A stretch of 32,000 nucleotides of DNA from a virus. How positions within the stretch are numbered: position 1 is the stretch's first letter; each line of letters begins with the position of its first letter. Below are positions 21,641-31,497 of the stretch, piece by piece. A program made the position numbers and the translations under genes. The DNA is taken from IMG/VR virus record IMGVR_UViG_3300033144_005525, positions 31,402 through 63,401 of that record. The stretch is one strand, 5' to 3'. The notes under the pieces are model-generated. The model was not told where the DNA came from. It did no database searches and saw nothing but the letters and a program-made list of their open reading frames with translations.

Positions 21641-22168
21641 CTAGGACTCGAGCTCGGACGTCCAGTAGAGATAATCCCTCCAGGCGTCTGGTGCGTTCTC
21701 TCTACTAAGCCGGAGGACCATAACTGGAACCCAGGTAGGTCGGATGGGCTGTGTTCGCAGCTTCATCCTGGCCTGGCTGGGAGTCCGGCCACCCTTCTTC
21801 AAGTTGCACGGTGAGCAGGAGATGACGATGTTCGTCCACTCTGTCCTGCCTCCCTGTGAACGTGGAACGACGTGGTCGTAGGTGCTCTTCTCTATATCGA
21901 GCTTTGTCCCGCAGTACTGGCACCTGTACTTGTCACGAGCACAGATGTTGACTCGAGAGAACTTGATCGGCTTCTTCCTCCTCTTGAACGCCCTGAGTAG
22001 GCGGACAACGGCCGGCATCTTGATAACCAAGGAAGTGGACCGGATGTCCTGGTCGTACTCCTCGATGACTTCGACCTTGCCCAGGAAGAGCAAGGTCAAG
22101 GCTCGCTGCCATGAGACGACTTTGATCGGCTCGTAGCCTTGCGACAGCATGAGTGTCTGCGTTGTCAT
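21641..22168 (-). CDS. HNH endonuclease
   Basis: CQYCG...YDHVVPRSQGGRTEWTNIVISCSPCNLKKG. ATG at 22168 (MTTQTLMLSQGYEPI...) preferred over the upstream start at 22228, which overlaps a tRNA. Confidence 0.8.
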   Translation of the reverse strand: MTTQTLMLSQGYEPIKVVSWQRALTLLFLGKVEVIEEYDQDIRSTSLVIKMPAVVRLLRAFKRRKKPIKFSRVNICARDKYRCQYCGTKLDIEKSTYDHVVPRSQGGRTEWTNIVISCSPCNLKKGGRTPSQARMKLRTQPIRPTWVPVMVLRLSRENAPDAWRDYLYWTSELES

Positions 22169-22203
22169 GTCGCCCCTTTCTTTGGTTAGTTGCCTGAATA
22201 TAG

Positions 22204-22276
22204 TACCAGCGGTGAGATTCGAACTCACACTTGCAGCGTTCTTAGCACTGTGCCTCTGCCGTTGGGCTACGCTGGC
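22204..22276 (-). tRNA. tRNA with Leu-type anticodon AAG, short variable loop
   Basis: Anticodon arm CAGTG-CTAAGAA-CGCTG, T-arm GTGAG-TTCGAAT-CTCAC. G1-U72, A73, 5-nt variable loop. 73 nt. Confidence 0.65.
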
Positions 22277-22288
22277 GTAGGAGAATCA

Positions 22289-22846
22289 ATGAGCAATACG
22301 TTTCTGTCGGCTGATCATCACTTCGGTCACCGTAAATTCATCATAGAGAAAGAGCGTCCCTTCTCCAGTGTCGAGGAAATGGATGAGGCACTGATCCAAC
22401 GCTGGAGAGAGCAGGTCGGACCCAAAGACATCGTGTACTACTTGGGAGATCTATCGTTCTCCAACAAGACCAGAACCCTGGCTATCCTTGACCAGCTCCC
22501 TGGACACATCCACTACATCCTTGGAAACCACGAGAAGTCCATCAAGGGTGAGGTTGCGACTCGGTTCGAGCGGGTGACTCACTACTACGAGATCAGGCAC
22601 CTGGTTGGGGGAGAGAAGGTCAAGATCATCCTGAGCCACTACCCCTTCGAGGTCTGGAACATGTACCACTACGGATCCTGGCATTGCCACGGACACAGTC
22701 ATGGGTCACTGACTCAGACCCGAGACATCCGTCGCATGGACGTCGGTGTGGATACCCGCAGTAACCTCGACCTGTGGCCTCTCGAAGAGGTGGAGGAGAT
22801 CATGAAGGCTCGTGGGATCGATAACGTCGACCACCACACCGAGTAG
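22289..22846 (+). CDS. calcineurin-like metallophosphoesterase
   Basis: Motifs SADHHFGH, YLGDLSF, ILGNHEK and CHGHSHG. ATG at 22289, downstream of the tRNA. Confidence 0.75.
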   Translation: MSNTFLSADHHFGHRKFIIEKERPFSSVEEMDEALIQRWREQVGPKDIVYYLGDLSFSNKTRTLAILDQLPGHIHYILGNHEKSIKGEVATRFERVTHYYEIRHLVGGEKVKIILSHYPFEVWNMYHYGSWHCHGHSHGSLTQTRDIRRMDVGVDTRSNLDLWPLEEVEEIMKARGIDNVDHHTE

Positions 22847-22920
22847 TACCGGCGGTCGGATTCGAACCGACACTGCATGGCTTTTGAAACCAATGAGTCT
22901 TCCAATTGCTCGACGCCGGC
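22847..22920 (-). tRNA. tRNA with Leu-type anticodon CAA, short variable loop
   Basis: Anticodon arm TTGGT-TTCAAAA-GCCAT (one mismatch), T-arm GTCGG-TTCGAAT-CCGAC. G1-U72, A73. Confidence 0.6.
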
Positions 22921-22924
22921 GTAG

Positions 22925-22955
22925 TAGGGGTAGAGGGATTCGAACCCTCACTGAA
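22925..22955 (-). pseudogene. orphan tRNA 3' portion (variable loop + T-arm + acceptor 3' strand)
   Basis: GAGGG-TTCGAAT-CCCTC followed by TACCCCT-A. No D or anticodon arm follows, because the HNH stop codon is 5 nt away. Confidence 0.55.
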
Positions 22956-22959
22956 GGGC

Positions 22960-23433
22960 TTACTTTCTGTTGTTCTTCCCGCAGTACGTCTCTGTCTGAG
23001 AATGGCAGTTGGGGCAGAGCAGCCTGAGGTTGCTGACTCTGTTATCTCTCCTGTTTCCATTCTTGTGGTCCAGGTGTAGAGACAACTCTTCTCCTCCCCA
23101 CTTCAATATTCCACATGCGGAGCACTTGTATTTCAAGACTCCTTCTCTCACTAACCTAGATTTCAGGCTCCCATTATTGGTGTACTTACTGTTCCTGACG
23201 AGAATCTTCTTGAGTGGAATCGTCCCTGGAGGAGATGGGAGGGTTTTGCCCTTGTTATGGCTTTGTCCGAGAAAATGAGATGTATCTAGACCAAGCCTTT
23301 CTATGTGGAGCTGAATACTGTGGTAGTTACCACCAGCCGGGACTAGTCCAATACCCCTTAGCACTTGTGCCAGGGACGTGGCCTTCTTGACCTCCCGTTT
23401 CAGCTCGGGATCTGTCCAAGTTCTATCTGACAT
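22960..23433 (-). CDS. HNH endonuclease
   Basis: LHLDHKNGNRRDNRVSNLRLLCPNCH. Confidence 0.8.
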   Translation of the reverse strand: MSDRTWTDPELKREVKKATSLAQVLRGIGLVPAGGNYHSIQLHIERLGLDTSHFLGQSHNKGKTLPSPPGTIPLKKILVRNSKYTNNGSLKSRLVREGVLKYKCSACGILKWGGEELSLHLDHKNGNRRDNRVSNLRLLCPNCHSQTETYCGKNNRK

Positions 23434-23435
23434 TG

Positions 23436-23509
23436 TGCTGGAGGAGGGAGTCGAACCCTCAACAATCCGAGTTTAAGTCGGACGCCGTTTCCAATTAGGC
23501 TACTCCAGC
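23436..23509 (-). tRNA. tRNA with Leu-type anticodon TAA, short variable loop
   Basis: Anticodon arm TCCGA-CTTAAAC-TCGGA, T-arm GAGGG-TTCGACT-CCCTC, acceptor GCTGGAG/CTCCAGC, A73. Confidence 0.7.
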
Positions 23510-23542
23510 TATACTGAAATGGCAATAGATGAACATTCATAT

Positions 23543-23567
23543 GCCTCTTCCGTTGGGCTACACCCCC
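23543..23567 (-). pseudogene. orphan tRNA 5' portion (acceptor 5' strand + D-arm)
   Basis: GGGGGTG-TA-GCCC-AACGGAAGA-GGC. The D-arm is near-identical to that of tRNA(AAG) at 22204. No anticodon or T arm follows. Confidence 0.55.
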
Positions 23568-23576
23568 AGGAGAACA

Positions 23577-23834
23577 ATGCGATGCCACGAGTGTAAGAAC
23601 TGTTTGGATCTAGAGAAAGTGAGGGCATCTGTTTTCAAAGTCGCCAACCCTCCATTCTCTCATGCATGTCAAGACGTCATAGATCTGTGGAACACAGAGC
23701 TTCAGCGACTACCGTGCCTAGTTCTAGCTGTGGACTGCCATACCTGCCATGCAGATCCCGGAGTACCATGTCGTTGGGGAGAGAGGTTCCACCCCACAAG
23801 AGTAGTACACGCACGTGTTCTCGCTGAGAGTTAG
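23577..23834 (+). CDS. Cys/His-rich zinc-finger-like protein
   Basis: AGGAG SD (MRCHECKNC...CHTCHADPGVPCRWGERFHPTR). Confidence 0.5.
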   Translation: MRCHECKNCLDLEKVRASVFKVANPPFSHACQDVIDLWNTELQRLPCLVLAVDCHTCHADPGVPCRWGERFHPTRVVHARVLAES

Positions 23835-23908
23835 TACCTGCGGTCGGAGTCGAACCGACACTTCACACGTTCTGAGCGTGCTCTCTCTGCCAATTGGAGT
23901 ACGCAGGC
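23835..23908 (-). tRNA. tRNA with Leu-type anticodon CAG, short variable loop
   Basis: Anticodon arm GCACG-CTCAGAA-CGTGT, T-arm GTCGG-TTCGACT-CCGAC. G1-U72, A73. Confidence 0.7.
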
Positions 23909-24838: not shown

Positions 24839-24842
24839 ATAG

Positions 24843-24991
24843 TGGGCCCCGGATGAATCGAACATCCATCTCCCGCCTTTCGGTTCCTCAAAGGGCTACG
24901 ACCTAGTACTTGAGTTAGCCACCTCTTTTCCGAGTCGCTGGGCTAAACCCCCTCGAGTCAACGGGCGCTCTACCGATTGAGCTAAAGACCC
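24843..24991 (-). tRNA. tRNA gene with a 77-nt structured insertion in the anticodon loop (anticodon undetermined)
   Basis: GGGTCTT-TA-GCTC-AATCGGTA-GAGC-G-CCCGT...[84 nt]...GCGGG-AGAT-GGATG-TTCGATT-CATCC-GGGGCCC-A. All four stems are in register except that 84 nt replace the 7-nt loop. Confidence 0.55.
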
Positions 24992-24995
24992 ATAG

Positions 24996-25030
24996 AGCTG
25001 GTGAGAGGAGTCGAGCCCACCCACCACAAC
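24996..25030 (-). pseudogene. 3' part (nt 39-73) of a split Thr(TGT)-like tRNA
   Basis: GTTGT-GGTGG-GTGGG-CTCGACT-CCTCT-CACCAGC-T. The acceptor strand is perfectly complementary to the 5' part at 25575-25611. Confidence 0.6.
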
Positions 25031-25038
25031 CAATATAG

Positions 25039-25111
25039 AGCCGGAGACAGGAATTGAACCCGCAACCCTCTGCTTACAAAGCAGTAGCTCTACCAATTGA
25101 GCTACTCCGGC
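25039..25111 (-). tRNA. tRNA-Thr(TGT)
   Basis: Anticodon arm ACTGC-TTTGTAA-GCAGA, D-arm GCTC-AATTGGTA-GAGC, T-arm GCGGG-TTCAATT-CCTGT. The 5' 37 nt overlap the HNH 3' end. Confidence 0.8.
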
Positions 25112-25532
25112 GACTTCGTCTTTCGTGAGTACGCTGCCTGTGGCAATTAGCACACACGAGATCGCATTTCTCGATCTCTTCCAGCACCTTCTTCTCGGTT
25201 GAGGACCTCACCAAGGTCGCGACAGCTGCCACTTTCTTACTACCCGGTCTGTGATCGAAATCCATTATCCACGGAGAGTAGGTCCTCCCACAATCCAAGC
25301 ACGGTTTGGTTTTCAGCCCATCTACAAGGACCTTCAACCTAATTCGCAATGCGTTGACGTTCCTTTTGGCTCTGGCTATCTCATGCTTCTTGTTGTTCTT
25401 GTAGTAGATCTTGTAGTAGTTCGCGGTGCATTCCTTACAGATCGAACCCAATCCGCCCCTCTTCTTAGAACAGGTCTTCGAGGTTCGTCTCTTCCCGCAC
25501 TTGCTACATGCCTTCTTCGGGGTGACTGGCAT
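25074..25532 (-). CDS. HNH endonuclease
   Basis: CSKCG...CLDCG...MDFDHRPGSKK...CDLVCANCHRQRTHER. Start is either ATG 25532 or TTG 25550. The stop lies inside tRNA-Thr(TGT). Confidence 0.75.
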   Translation of the reverse strand: MPVTPKKACSKCGKRRTSKTCSKKRGGLGSICKECTANYYKIYYKNNKKHEIARAKRNVNALRIRLKVLVDGLKTKPCLDCGRTYSPWIMDFDHRPGSKKVAAVATLVRSSTEKKVLEEIEKCDLVCANCHRQRTHERRSRRSSSIGRATAL

Positions 25533-25574
25533 CCTCTGAATGTAAACCAAGGAGAGTTGTAAATCAATCCATGT

Positions 25575-25611
25575 TTACAAAACCATTGCGCTACCGTTGC
25601 GCCACACCAGC
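25575..25611 (-). pseudogene. 5' part (nt 1-38) of a split Thr(TGT)-like tRNA
   Basis: GCTGGTG-TG-GCGC-AACGGTA-GCGC-A-ATGGT-TTTGTAA, then an unrelated leader of the HNH gene. Confidence 0.65.
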
Positions 25612-25622
25612 AGGAAAAACAA

Positions 25623-26132
25623 ATGGGAACAAAACCTAGAAACAACAATCCCTACAACATGGTTCCTTTCATACTCAAACCCAAACCTAGTCGTATTCGG
25701 TACTACTTGATACACAAGGACAACTCGGAGAACACCTTAAAGGCAATACGTCGTCGAAACCCTTTGCATCGAGGAATGCTGGAAAACAACTGGAACTGGT
25801 ATCTTGAGTCAAGAGCTAATCATGTCGTAATTGCCTACGACCCAAAATCCAGAGACCCCATCGTTGGTGCATTCAAGTTCGACTTTGGACGTAGATGGCA
25901 CTCAATTAACTCACATGGCACCTGGGTTCGTTCTTCCTTCCAACGCAGGGGGATAGCGAAGACCATGTGGATCACTGCGATCAGGAAGTTGAAGGTAGAG
26001 AGAGTAGAAGTACGAGTCGTATCAGACAGAGGACTCACCCTCATCTCGTCCATCAAGAAGAAGTTCCCACGAGTTCGATTCCAACTATGGGAAGACGGAG
26101 ACAGAAAACTCCGTCATCTGAAGGCTGCCTAG
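25623..26132 (+). CDS. GNAT-family N-acetyltransferase
   Basis: Motif A-like VRSSFQRRGIAKTMW (Q/RxxGxA). AGGAAA before the ATG. Confidence 0.5.
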   Translation: MGTKPRNNNPYNMVPFILKPKPSRIRYYLIHKDNSENTLKAIRRRNPLHRGMLENNWNWYLESRANHVVIAYDPKSRDPIVGAFKFDFGRRWHSINSHGTWVRSSFQRRGIAKTMWITAIRKLKVERVEVRVVSDRGLTLISSIKKKFPRVRFQLWEDGDRKLRHLKAA

Positions 26133-28319: not shown

Positions 28320-28386
28320 CAGACAACCGGGGAATCGAACCCCGCTGAGCGGTTTTGGAGACCACTATGATCCCAGATCGTCGTCT
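28320..28386 (-). tRNA. tRNA-Trp(CCA)
   Basis: Anticodon arm GTGGT-CTCCAAA-ACCGC, T-arm CGGGG-TTCGATT-CCCCG, G73. Reduced D-arm GATC-TGG-GATC. 67 nt. Confidence 0.7.
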
Positions 28387-28395
28387 ATATAGGTG

Positions 28396-29267: not shown

Positions 29268-29340
29268 TAGCGGGCGCCGGAGTCCAACCGACTGTCTCTG
29301 GGTTATGAGCCCAACGTGTAAGGCGTTTCACTCGCCCGCA
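29268..29340 (-). tRNA. initiator-like tRNA-fMet(CAT)
   Basis: Anticodon arm TTGGG-CTCATAA-CCCAG with three consecutive G-C pairs closing the loop. Positions 1-72 are unpaired. T-arm GTCGG-TTGGACT-CCGGC. Confidence 0.7.
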
Positions 29341-31278: not shown

Positions 31279-31497
31279 ATGGCAGTATTCAATTCACGAT
31301 TCACCGCTCCTATCGACGATAGGAGAAAACTCCATATCATCCACGAAGACCGGAGTCCTCAATTCATCTTCTGCATCCAGAAGAATGGAAAGAGTATCTG
31401 GAAGTCTCGGATCACCTTCTCTCTGAACAAGGGAATGGTGTATCGGATGGCGGAATGGATCCTATCCCACAGGGATGCTGAGGGAGAGCATAGGTGA
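31279..31497 (+). CDS. hypothetical protein
   Basis: 72-aa ORF. Confidence 0.4.
   Translation: MAVFNSRFTAPIDDRRKLHIIHEDRSPQFIFCIQKNGKSIWKSRITFSLNKGMVYRMAEWILSHRDAEGEHR

Follow-up and report, generated by a model that had tools for sequence, protein, structure and literature searches.

A phage tRNA-Thr(UGU) gene probably interrupted by an HNH homing endonuclease cassette that carries its own tRNA-Thr(UGU) gene

Introduction

Homing endonucleases that are encoded in phage transfer RNA (tRNA) gene clusters and cut tRNA genes are already known. SegB of phage T4, a free-standing homing endonuclease of the GIY-YIG family encoded in the T4 tRNA gene cluster, cuts tRNA genes and has been shown experimentally to drive the inheritance of its own gene along with the neighbouring tRNA genes; the end of its open reading frame (ORF) is parted from its stop codon by the processing of the downstream tRNA, so that the removal of a stop codon in this manner is a known phenomenon as well (PMC2330249). 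In phage T6, segmental amplification of segB together with tRNA-Tyr has produced repeated units that include truncated genes (PMC13096335). Here we analyze a stretch of 32,000 nucleotides (nt) from the IMG/VR virus record IMGVR_UViG_3300033144_005525 (positions 31,402 to 63,401; hereafter, the window), in which a gene for an HNH endonuclease, together with an intact tRNA-Thr(UGU) gene, forms a cassette that probably lies inside another, resident tRNA-Thr(UGU) gene. The locus was singled out by an original prediction made from the sequence alone, according to which the element that breaks the tRNA gene brings a replacement for it.

As with segB, the HNH gene of the cassette forms part of a phage tRNA cluster and is co-oriented with the tRNA genes. 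The two differ in that SegB belongs to the GIY-YIG family, recognizes the T-psi-C region and sits between genes, whereas the cassette described here is located inside a tRNA gene after the anticodon loop, is flanked by orphan halves of that gene and contains an ORF that extends 38 nt into a tRNA. HNH enzymes are also known from the tRNA region of phage T5, namely F-TflI/II/IV (Akulenko et al. 2004, cited in PMC2330249). These too are encoded among phage tRNA genes, and their expression is thought to be limited by tRNA processing; in contrast to the present case, we found no report of split or duplicated tRNA parts for these enzymes.

Group I introns bearing homing endonuclease genes occur in the anticodon loops of bacterial tRNAs. 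The similarity to the locus in the window consists in a break of the anticodon region by an element able to carry an endonuclease gene; in contrast to these introns, the insert in the window contains no ribozyme core, and function would be kept by a replacement tRNA rather than by splicing. In 'fractured genes', a homing endonuclease gene resides between two gene halves that are associated with split inteins (PMC2677866). Fractured genes share with our case a free-standing endonuclease gene that physically splits a host gene in two, but are rescued by protein trans-splicing, whereas in the window the halves appear to be abandoned and a whole substitute gene supplied. Finally, integrases insert elements into tRNA genes and duplicate the 3' part of the gene as the att site. 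For integrase-driven integration into tRNA genes, see bioRxiv 10.1101/2022.07.05.498093. These elements resemble the cassette in landing in a tRNA gene, in restoring an intact tRNA from the carried sequence and in leaving a partial copy, but they rely on a tyrosine integrase, and what they duplicate is the 3' part, as opposed to an HNH enzyme and mainly a 5' orphan (nt 1-38/41) here.

Among open-access papers and preprints, we found no description of an insertion within a tRNA gene after the anticodon loop or of target replacement by a carried tRNA, none of orphan 5' halves abutting an endonuclease promoter, and none of a deep ORF-tRNA fusion in which conserved tRNA bases serve as the stop codon. 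The class of element is less isolated than the original prediction assumed, given that phage tRNA clusters are known to encode homing endonucleases that cut tRNA genes and overlap a tRNA further downstream (T4 SegB, PMC2330249).

Anatomy of the interrupted locus

All parts of the locus are on the minus strand. The 5' part of the resident tRNA-Thr(UGU)-type gene, nt 1-38, occupies positions 25611-25575 and reads GCTGGTG TG GCGC AACGGTA GCGC A ATGGT TTTGTAA; the decayed 3' part, nt 39-73, occupies positions 25030-24996 and reads GTTGT GGTGG GTGGG CTCGACT CCTCT CACCAGC T. On re-reading, the letters of both pieces match the original prediction exactly, as does the complementarity of the acceptor strands that it noted, with 7/7 Watson-Crick pairs between 25611-25605 and the 3' piece. 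The two halves sum to exactly one gene of canonical length with no resident base missing, and the anticodon stem of the joined gene, which had been described as rich in G-U pairs, contains four of them.

The interruption spans 544 nt. In agreement with the original prediction, it contains an intact HNH ORF that overlaps an intact tRNA-Thr(UGU) gene; a promoter-like site is present as well. The insert starts with the junction ACATGG (25569..25574), the first two bases of which possibly belong to the resident gene as its nt 39-40 or are a cassette-borne relic; the counterparts of this junction in two related loci, L111 and L106, are GCAGG and CCATAGG, respectively. Next come the promoter-like site TTGATT-N17-TACATT (25539..25567), which is 6 nt ahead of the ATG and would represent a leaderless design, and the HNH ORF of 152 amino acids (aa), which extends from the ATG at 25532 (ORF 25550/25532) to the end of the stop codon at 25074. 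The intact tRNA-Thr(UGU) gene, the putative replacement copy (25038..25111), was identified with ARAGORN and Rfam (65.5 bits) and folds into a cloverleaf with a z-score of -3.0; in the ARAGORN annotation, it is the sole intact Thr(UGU) decoder of the array. At the right junction, as read from the sequence, the spacer TATATTG (25031..25037) separates this tRNA from the 3' relic. The short repeat ATTG is present at both junctions, and CTAT is found 3' of both the intact tRNA and the relic. The placement of the breakpoint is flexible, anywhere from nt 38/39 to nt 40/41.

The HNH endonuclease gene and its predicted promoter

The ORF at 25532-25074 matches PHROG 2255, 'HNH endonuclease' (E-value 1.3e-27), and has 457 homologues at E-values up to 1e-5. 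It retains the invariant cysteine pairs of the family and the M-D-x-D-H-R motif (CxxC...DxDH...N...CxxCH), and its C-terminal CANCHR motif agrees with the homologues that are long enough to reach it. The PHROG match and the conserved motifs together identify a homing endonuclease fold; searches of Pfam families and of PDB sequences returned no match and no relative. The gene is located inside the tRNA cluster, co-oriented with 35 tRNAs and outside any intron family match.

The final 38 nt of the ORF are inside the tRNA-Thr gene, such that the first 38 nt of the tRNA double as the C-terminus of the endonuclease and its stop codon, the latter being U36-A37-A38 of the anticodon loop. Stop codons provided by conserved tRNA bases were also observed in L106, L114, L153, L221 and other loci, namely U36-A37-A38 in tRNA-Thr and U33-G34-A35 in tRNA-Phe. 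One class of the ORFs of this HNH family overlaps the tRNA by 10 nt.

Upstream of the ORF, promoter-like sites are found in the window (TTGATT-N17-TACATT), in L111 (TTGAGT-N17-TATGAT) and in L106 (TGGAAC-N17-TATGAT). In the window and in the related loci, the -10 element is 6-7 nt away from the ATG, which implies a leaderless mRNA. Thirteen related loci, as well as Streptomyces phage JimJam, retain this arrangement, and the conserved stretch is a predicted sigma-70-like promoter.

The two tRNA-Thr pieces as halves of one gene

Sequence comparison indicates that the two pieces are halves of one tRNA-Thr(UGU)-type gene. The 5' piece is detected by Rfam as a 3'-truncated tRNA (model positions 1-37, 23.8 bits, E-value 0.0026, with the search stretch cut at 25575) and also matches a hidden Markov model (HMM) of 5' tRNA halves (E-value 0.016). 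A 25-nt pattern derived solely from the 5' piece retrieved 40 IMG/VR contigs, all of which contain genuine tRNA-Thr(UGU) genes; one of these genes shares with the window both nt 1-26 and the final 13 nt, CCTCTCACCAGCT, without a mismatch. Probes for the 3' half were then taken from the genes selected by the 5' half, and are accordingly blind to the 3' piece of the window. When these probes were slid across both strands of the whole window, the top match was the intact tRNA-Thr and the second-best match was 24995-25029 (25-26/35), which ranked above all other tRNAs. The G1-C72 and C2-G71 pairs and U73 of the joined gene are common to the other Thr tRNAs of the array. The 3' piece contains C54 and one mismatch in the T stem. 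ARAGORN calls the joined 72-mer tRNA-Thr(tgt), a call that is weak evidence alone because the program tolerates chimeras.

The relic halves are identical to the intact tRNA-Thr at only 49/72 positions, and their acceptor strands pair with each other at all seven positions but not with those of the intact tRNA; hence the relics are not copies of the intact tRNA. The 3' half of the intact tRNA, which ARAGORN proposed as the partner of the orphan 5' half, was rejected, with 6/7 acceptor pairs and no anticodon-stem pairing. Run with introns on the raw window, ARAGORN reported mostly chimeras of neighbouring tRNAs, and its application to half-synthetic tRNAs as a fragment detector was far too permissive and was discarded.

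Presence and absence of the cassette in Streptomyces phages

Related cassettes can be compared directly with cassette-free alleles in cultured Streptomyces phages. In JimJam, a homologue of the HNH gene is flanked by two tRNA-Pro(tgg) genes, with a 10-nt overlap into the second. More than 10 Karimacvirus phages, SaltySpitoon included, have flanks that are 98-99% identical and lack about 445 nt at the site of the JimJam HNH gene; in these HNH-minus phages, the two tRNA-Pro genes are 22 nt apart. In the alignment, the identity between JimJam and the HNH-minus phages stops at the 3' end of the first tRNA-Pro and resumes at the T arm of the second one. The HNH-plus and HNH-minus alleles of the second tRNA-Pro diverge in the D loop and the variable loop as well as on either side of the anticodon stem, where the changes are compensatory. 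PumpkinSpice encompasses a different HNH gene and a wholly different tRNA-Pro, with identity resuming right after the tRNA.

From this alignment, it follows that the mobile unit consists of the promoter, the HNH gene and part or all of the downstream tRNA, and replaces the resident allele. Presence/absence polymorphism accompanied by co-conversion is seen in members of the family from Streptomyces phages, JimJam versus SaltySpitoon and others, and these comparisons identify the cassettes of the HNH family in Streptomyces phages as cases of homing with co-conversion. The centring of the allelic differences on the anticodon stem would fit a recognition or cleavage site there.

Relatives of the cassette in phages and bacteria

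Two related loci are particularly close to that in the window. L106, an 867-nt ENA contig, encodes an HNH homologue (61% aa identity) that overlaps an intact tRNA-Thr(UGU) by 38 nt, with the same stop codon. Its homology to the window begins exactly at TTTGTAA, which in L106 is found just after a complete tRNA-Met; the 5' relic is pared down to about 12 nt in this contig and, accordingly, appears to be dispensable. L111 encodes an HNH homologue with 69% aa identity in an array that is syntenic with the window (Gly(tcc), Thr(cgt), Gln(ttg)), and an orphan 5' part of tRNA-Thr(UGU), nt 1-43, GCTAGCGTAGCTCAGCCGGTAGAGCGCCTGCCTTGTAAGCAGG, is located directly ahead of the promoter stretch of the HNH gene.

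The broader family was surveyed in 112 loci from IMG/VR and the Joint Genome Institute (JGI) metagenomes that encode homologues of the HNH protein encoded within the Thr locus. In 57 of the 112 loci, the stop codon of the ORF falls between 60 nt inside and 15 nt before the start of a tRNA on the same strand, and the ORFs of the family, in phage contigs and bacterial genomes alike, usually extend into the tRNA that follows. After masking of tRNAs, the loci (612 kilobases, kb) were scanned with an HMM built on tRNA nt 1-38, which yielded 12 orphan matches; half of these (6/12) fall in the approximately 110 nt that precede an HNH start, a zone making up 5% of the bases (P = 1.1e-5). Among the loci of these matches and further ones, thirteen share one layout in which the orphan 5' part of tRNA-X is followed by the -35/-10 elements, 6-7 nt, the HNH ORF and an intact tRNA-X, where X is Thr, Phe, Gln, Gly or Arg. 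The fragments in these 13 loci end at nt 38-41, that is, at nt 38, often with 2 further complementary bases (nt 40). According to the 5'-half and 3'-half HMMs, Val(UAC) in contig L001 is another arrangement in which both halves are kept.

Members of the HNH family were also found in contigs of bacterial metagenome-assembled genomes (L191-L218), within chromosomal tRNA operons and with or without an orphan part. The hosts are Patescibacteria (in a Val-Phe-Gly tRNA operon), Acidobacteriota and Actinomycetota, with loci in Pyrinomonadaceae, Solirubrobacterales and others, and the downstream tRNA is usually overlapped by 10, 15, 23 or 36 nt. A further homologue, 47% identical, is encoded by Myxococcus phage Mx1 (L220; OR576727.2, 48201-48602) between tRNA-Gln and tRNA-Lys, abutting the latter, and is unannotated in the GenBank record.

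A second split tRNA and the surrounding array

The Thr locus is embedded in a minus-strand array (approximately 20.4-29.3 kb) in which ARAGORN identifies at least 35 tRNA genes, all in one orientation. The array is akin to those of large uncultured phages; the IMG/VR contig L001 shares part of the tRNA order. A second interrupted gene, of the Leu(UAA) type, was detected in this array at 23567..22924 (-) with ARAGORN in the intron mode after masking of the complete tRNAs, its anticodon loop being broken by 569 nt. Its orphan 5' part (23532..23567, minus strand; ARAGORN with introns) shows a 95% match to tRNA-Leu nt 7-26, and its orphan 3' part, which includes the anticodon, T arm and acceptor strand (22924..22962, minus strand), is detected by the 3'-half HMM (E-value 0.015) and shows a 100% match to tRNA-Leu nt 48-68. 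Between these parts are an intact tRNA-Leu(UAA) (23435..23509, minus strand; ARAGORN; Rfam, 66 bits) and an HNH ORF of a different family (22960..23433, minus strand; PHROG 10822, 6.5e-51), the TAA stop codon of which is the first triplet of the 3' relic. The gene order here is tRNA followed by HNH. The case for a split Leu(UAA) gene is somewhat weaker than that for the Thr gene because the Rfam truncated-match search confirmed neither piece.

In L109 (2825-2860, 3460-3565), a homologue of the second HNH protein is preceded by an orphan 5' piece and an intact tRNA-Trp and followed by a further Trp(CCA)-like tRNA, the anticodon stem of which gives way to a long insertion. A third HNH ORF of the window, 21641-22228 (-) (PHROG 16726, 1.3e-40), is located directly after tRNA-Leu(aag), with no orphan tRNA pieces seen beside it.

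Several other features of the array and its vicinity were noted. Bacterial tRNA-Leu usually has a long variable arm; all four tRNA-Leu genes of the window (22203-22276, 22846-22920, 23435-23509 and 23834-23908, all on the minus strand) are 74-75 nt long and have a short variable arm and A73. Two genes on the minus strand were missed by ARAGORN, a tRNA(CAT) at 29268-29340 (Rfam, 37.7 bits) and a Trp(CCA)-like gene at 28320-28387 that has a reduced D arm, a weak Rfam match and a 91% match to a phage tRNA-Trp. The array includes no tRNA-Ala. Directly 3' of the Thr 3' relic, a tRNA-like gene (24842-24991, minus strand) carries a structured 79-nt insertion in the anticodon loop; the fold preserves its acceptor, D and T arms, the insert can be placed so as to leave either GAC or AAA as the anticodon, and the insertion matches no Rfam family. 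A comparable tRNA-like gene with a 122-nt insertion is found in L004 (10283-10481). On the opposite strand, starting 12 nt from the 5' relic, an ORF at 25623-26132 (+) shows similarity to GNAT acetyltransferases (E-value 0.0014) that is below the Pfam cut-off, and has no relatives in IMG/VR or the JGI metagenomes. The search for relatives of this phage was also negative: a DNA search identified no close phage in GenBank, the phosphoesterase of the array has at most 43% aa identity to proteins in IMG/VR, the exact 22-mer of the Thr 3' relic was not found elsewhere in IMG/VR, and exact-protein look-ups of both HNH ORFs yielded no close relative.

Alternative explanations

Among the alternatives to the insertion of a mobile cassette, the one that survives best, albeit an unlikely one, is that no foreign DNA was inserted and the locus is a by-product of break repair. 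Under this scenario, an HNH gene already located beside tRNA-Thr would have cut within the array, and unequal or microhomology recombination among tRNA paralogues (segmental duplication) would have left partial copies at the junctions. The SegB-dependent segmental amplification of tRNA-Tyr and segB in T6, with its truncated genes, offers a precedent (PMC13096335), the repeats ATTG and CTAT at the junctions in the window would fit this scenario, and some loci, such as L127, contain an orphan 5' part that is very similar to their own intact tRNA, as expected of a duplicate. However, the Thr relics are too dissimilar to the intact tRNA (49/72) to fit this picture, their acceptor strands pair perfectly with each other and not with its strands, and the halves total exactly one gene of canonical length. 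Moreover, the Streptomyces phages display a true insertion/replacement polymorphism.

Considerably less probable still is a functional interrupted or split tRNA, the halves of which would be expressed and joined into a second tRNA-Thr(UGU); the 544 nt would be spliced out as an intron, or else the halves would associate in trans and be ligated once RNase P/Z has freed the inner tRNA. The group I introns of bacterial tRNAs sit in the anticodon region, where the Thr gene is broken as well; furthermore, ARAGORN accepts the joined sequence, all five positions of the anticodon stem are able to pair, and no base has been lost. Nevertheless, Rfam searches, at E-values up to 1 in 10 kb and up to 10 in 636 nt, detected no group I, group II or other intron or ribozyme family, and no group I ribozyme core (Intron_gpI) was found between the exons; the insert is taken up by the ORF and the tRNA, and a group I or other intron was rejected on these grounds. 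For the joined RNA, folding gives a minimum free energy of -23.5 kcal/mol, compared with -22.7 +/- 3.0 for shuffled sequences (z-score -0.26; 74 of the 200 shuffles fold as well), and its minimum-energy fold is not a cloverleaf, in contrast to that of the intact tRNA-Thr; C54, the T-stem mismatch and the four G-U pairs point in the same direction. Since there is no intron family and the joined fold is at the shuffle level, joining at the RNA level is unsupported. Thus, the 72-nt cloverleaf of the original prediction is accepted by ARAGORN but not by folding, and the failure to fold better than shuffled sequences refutes the idea of a joined RNA on the terms set by that prediction itself, while the claim of a gene broken by an insert at the DNA level stands. 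The junction sequences ACATGGATTG... and ...CTATATTG show no mutual complementarity beyond the tRNA stems and no sign of a bulge-helix-bulge, and the context is a bacteriophage-like tRNA array as opposed to one of archaeal-type split tRNAs. In the relatives, the 5' part is often alone, cut to 12 nt (L106) or absent, and so is dispensable. The Thr halves are best read as dead, non-functional relics. An att duplication of the integrase type was rejected as well: the 544-nt insert contains no integrase, the HNH gene being the only ORF there, and the relatives duplicate the 5' part, not the 3' part.

The least credible possibility, that two unrelated tRNA-like scraps in a dense array are complementary by accident, might draw on the many spurious chimeras that ARAGORN produces with introns in this array, on the approximately 8 non-tRNA places in 64 kb that it calls when they are joined to the 5' piece, and on the failure of the 3' piece in the Rfam and HMM searches, but is disfavoured by the 7/7 Watson-Crick acceptor pairs, the independent resemblance of each piece to Thr(UGU), the exact position of the pieces on either side of the HNH-tRNA module, the second case in the window and the enrichment of orphan 5' parts beside HNH genes (P = 1.1e-5).

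Proposed scenario

In our view, the locus is most probably a free-standing HNH homing endonuclease cassette, specialized for tRNA genes, that is located inside a resident tRNA-Thr(UGU) gene and supplies a replacement tRNA. The original reading that the element brings a replacement gains support from the identification of the ORF as an HNH endonuclease gene, the second case in Leu(UAA), the related loci L106 and L111 and the alleles of Streptomyces phages. The anatomy of the locus, the identity of the HNH protein, the recurring architecture and the presence/absence polymorphism in relatives are directly observed, and on this basis we infer the cleavage position, the use of the promoter and the repair route in this genome as follows. 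The cassette would consist of its own promoter, from which a leaderless mRNA is produced, the HNH ORF and the intact tRNA-Thr(UGU). Cleavage by the enzyme would take place in naive copies of the tRNA-Thr(UGU) gene, immediately past the 3' side of the anticodon loop (nt 38-41), and repair of the break would copy the cassette from the donor genome. Between related genomes, the resident tRNA would be partly or wholly replaced by co-conversion, as seen for the relatives in Streptomyces phages. In the case of the window, a cassette of the Thr(UGU) lineage may have entered a phage in which the resident gene was too divergent (49/72) for ordinary homologous replacement; the resident gene would have been broken just past the anticodon loop and the cassette captured there with no loss of bases, so that both resident halves survived as relics. 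The relics would then have decayed, with the cassette tRNA becoming the sole Thr(UGU) gene and taking over decoding.

Several observations weigh against this scenario. The 3' piece alone was detected neither by Rfam nor by the 3'-half HMM, and when the 5' piece was combined with every 35-mer of the window, ARAGORN made calls at about 8 non-tRNA places (64 kb scanned). The pairing of the anticodon stem through four G-U pairs could be partly due to chance (about 1/64 at a fixed register). Most of the related loci have a 5' fragment only or no fragment, and retention of both halves in the window therefore requires the extra assumption of capture at a break rather than ordinary homing. Because no close relative of the phage was found, there is no orthologous empty site for the Thr locus. 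The locus is known from one contig and could reflect a misassembly; the cleavage position is deduced solely from the fragment ends; and the promoter-like site of the window, with 8/12 matches, is under the threshold of the promoter scan and was not reported by it.

More tentatively, the cassette could belong to a widespread class of tRNA-gene-specific HNH homing cassettes with representatives among large phages as well as on the chromosomes of bacteria (Patescibacteria, Acidobacteriota and Actinomycetota). This possibility is put forward jointly with the following features, and with some hesitation about the combination. The cassettes would cut a tRNA gene immediately beyond its anticodon loop, and the target would be healed without splicing, by a carried 5' portion of the tRNA or by a whole tRNA fused to the end of the ORF. 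Conserved tRNA bases would serve as the stop codon of the ORF, and the mRNA would be leaderless. The orphan 5' half abutting the -35 element would provide a homology arm for further homing, and may double as an operator through which the cassette represses itself, as in the case of I-TevI, which represses its own expression via an operator.

Implications

If this interpretation is correct, the cassettes represent a third way for a homing endonuclease gene to reside inside an essential or useful gene, by providing a substitute copy or a substitute 5' part, as distinct from intron and intein splicing. Such elements would explain features that are missed or miscalled by annotation pipelines, namely orphan 5' fragments of tRNAs and duplicated isoacceptors that flank HNH genes, as well as the turnover of alleles in phage tRNA arrays and bacterial tRNA operons. 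Pairs of enzyme and target are directly testable in cultured phages, for example, JimJam versus SaltySpitoon. The split Thr gene itself is a relic, and yet it points to a general mechanism. Phage tRNAs counter tRNA-targeting defences, and therefore elements that swap tRNA alleles may matter in that arms race.

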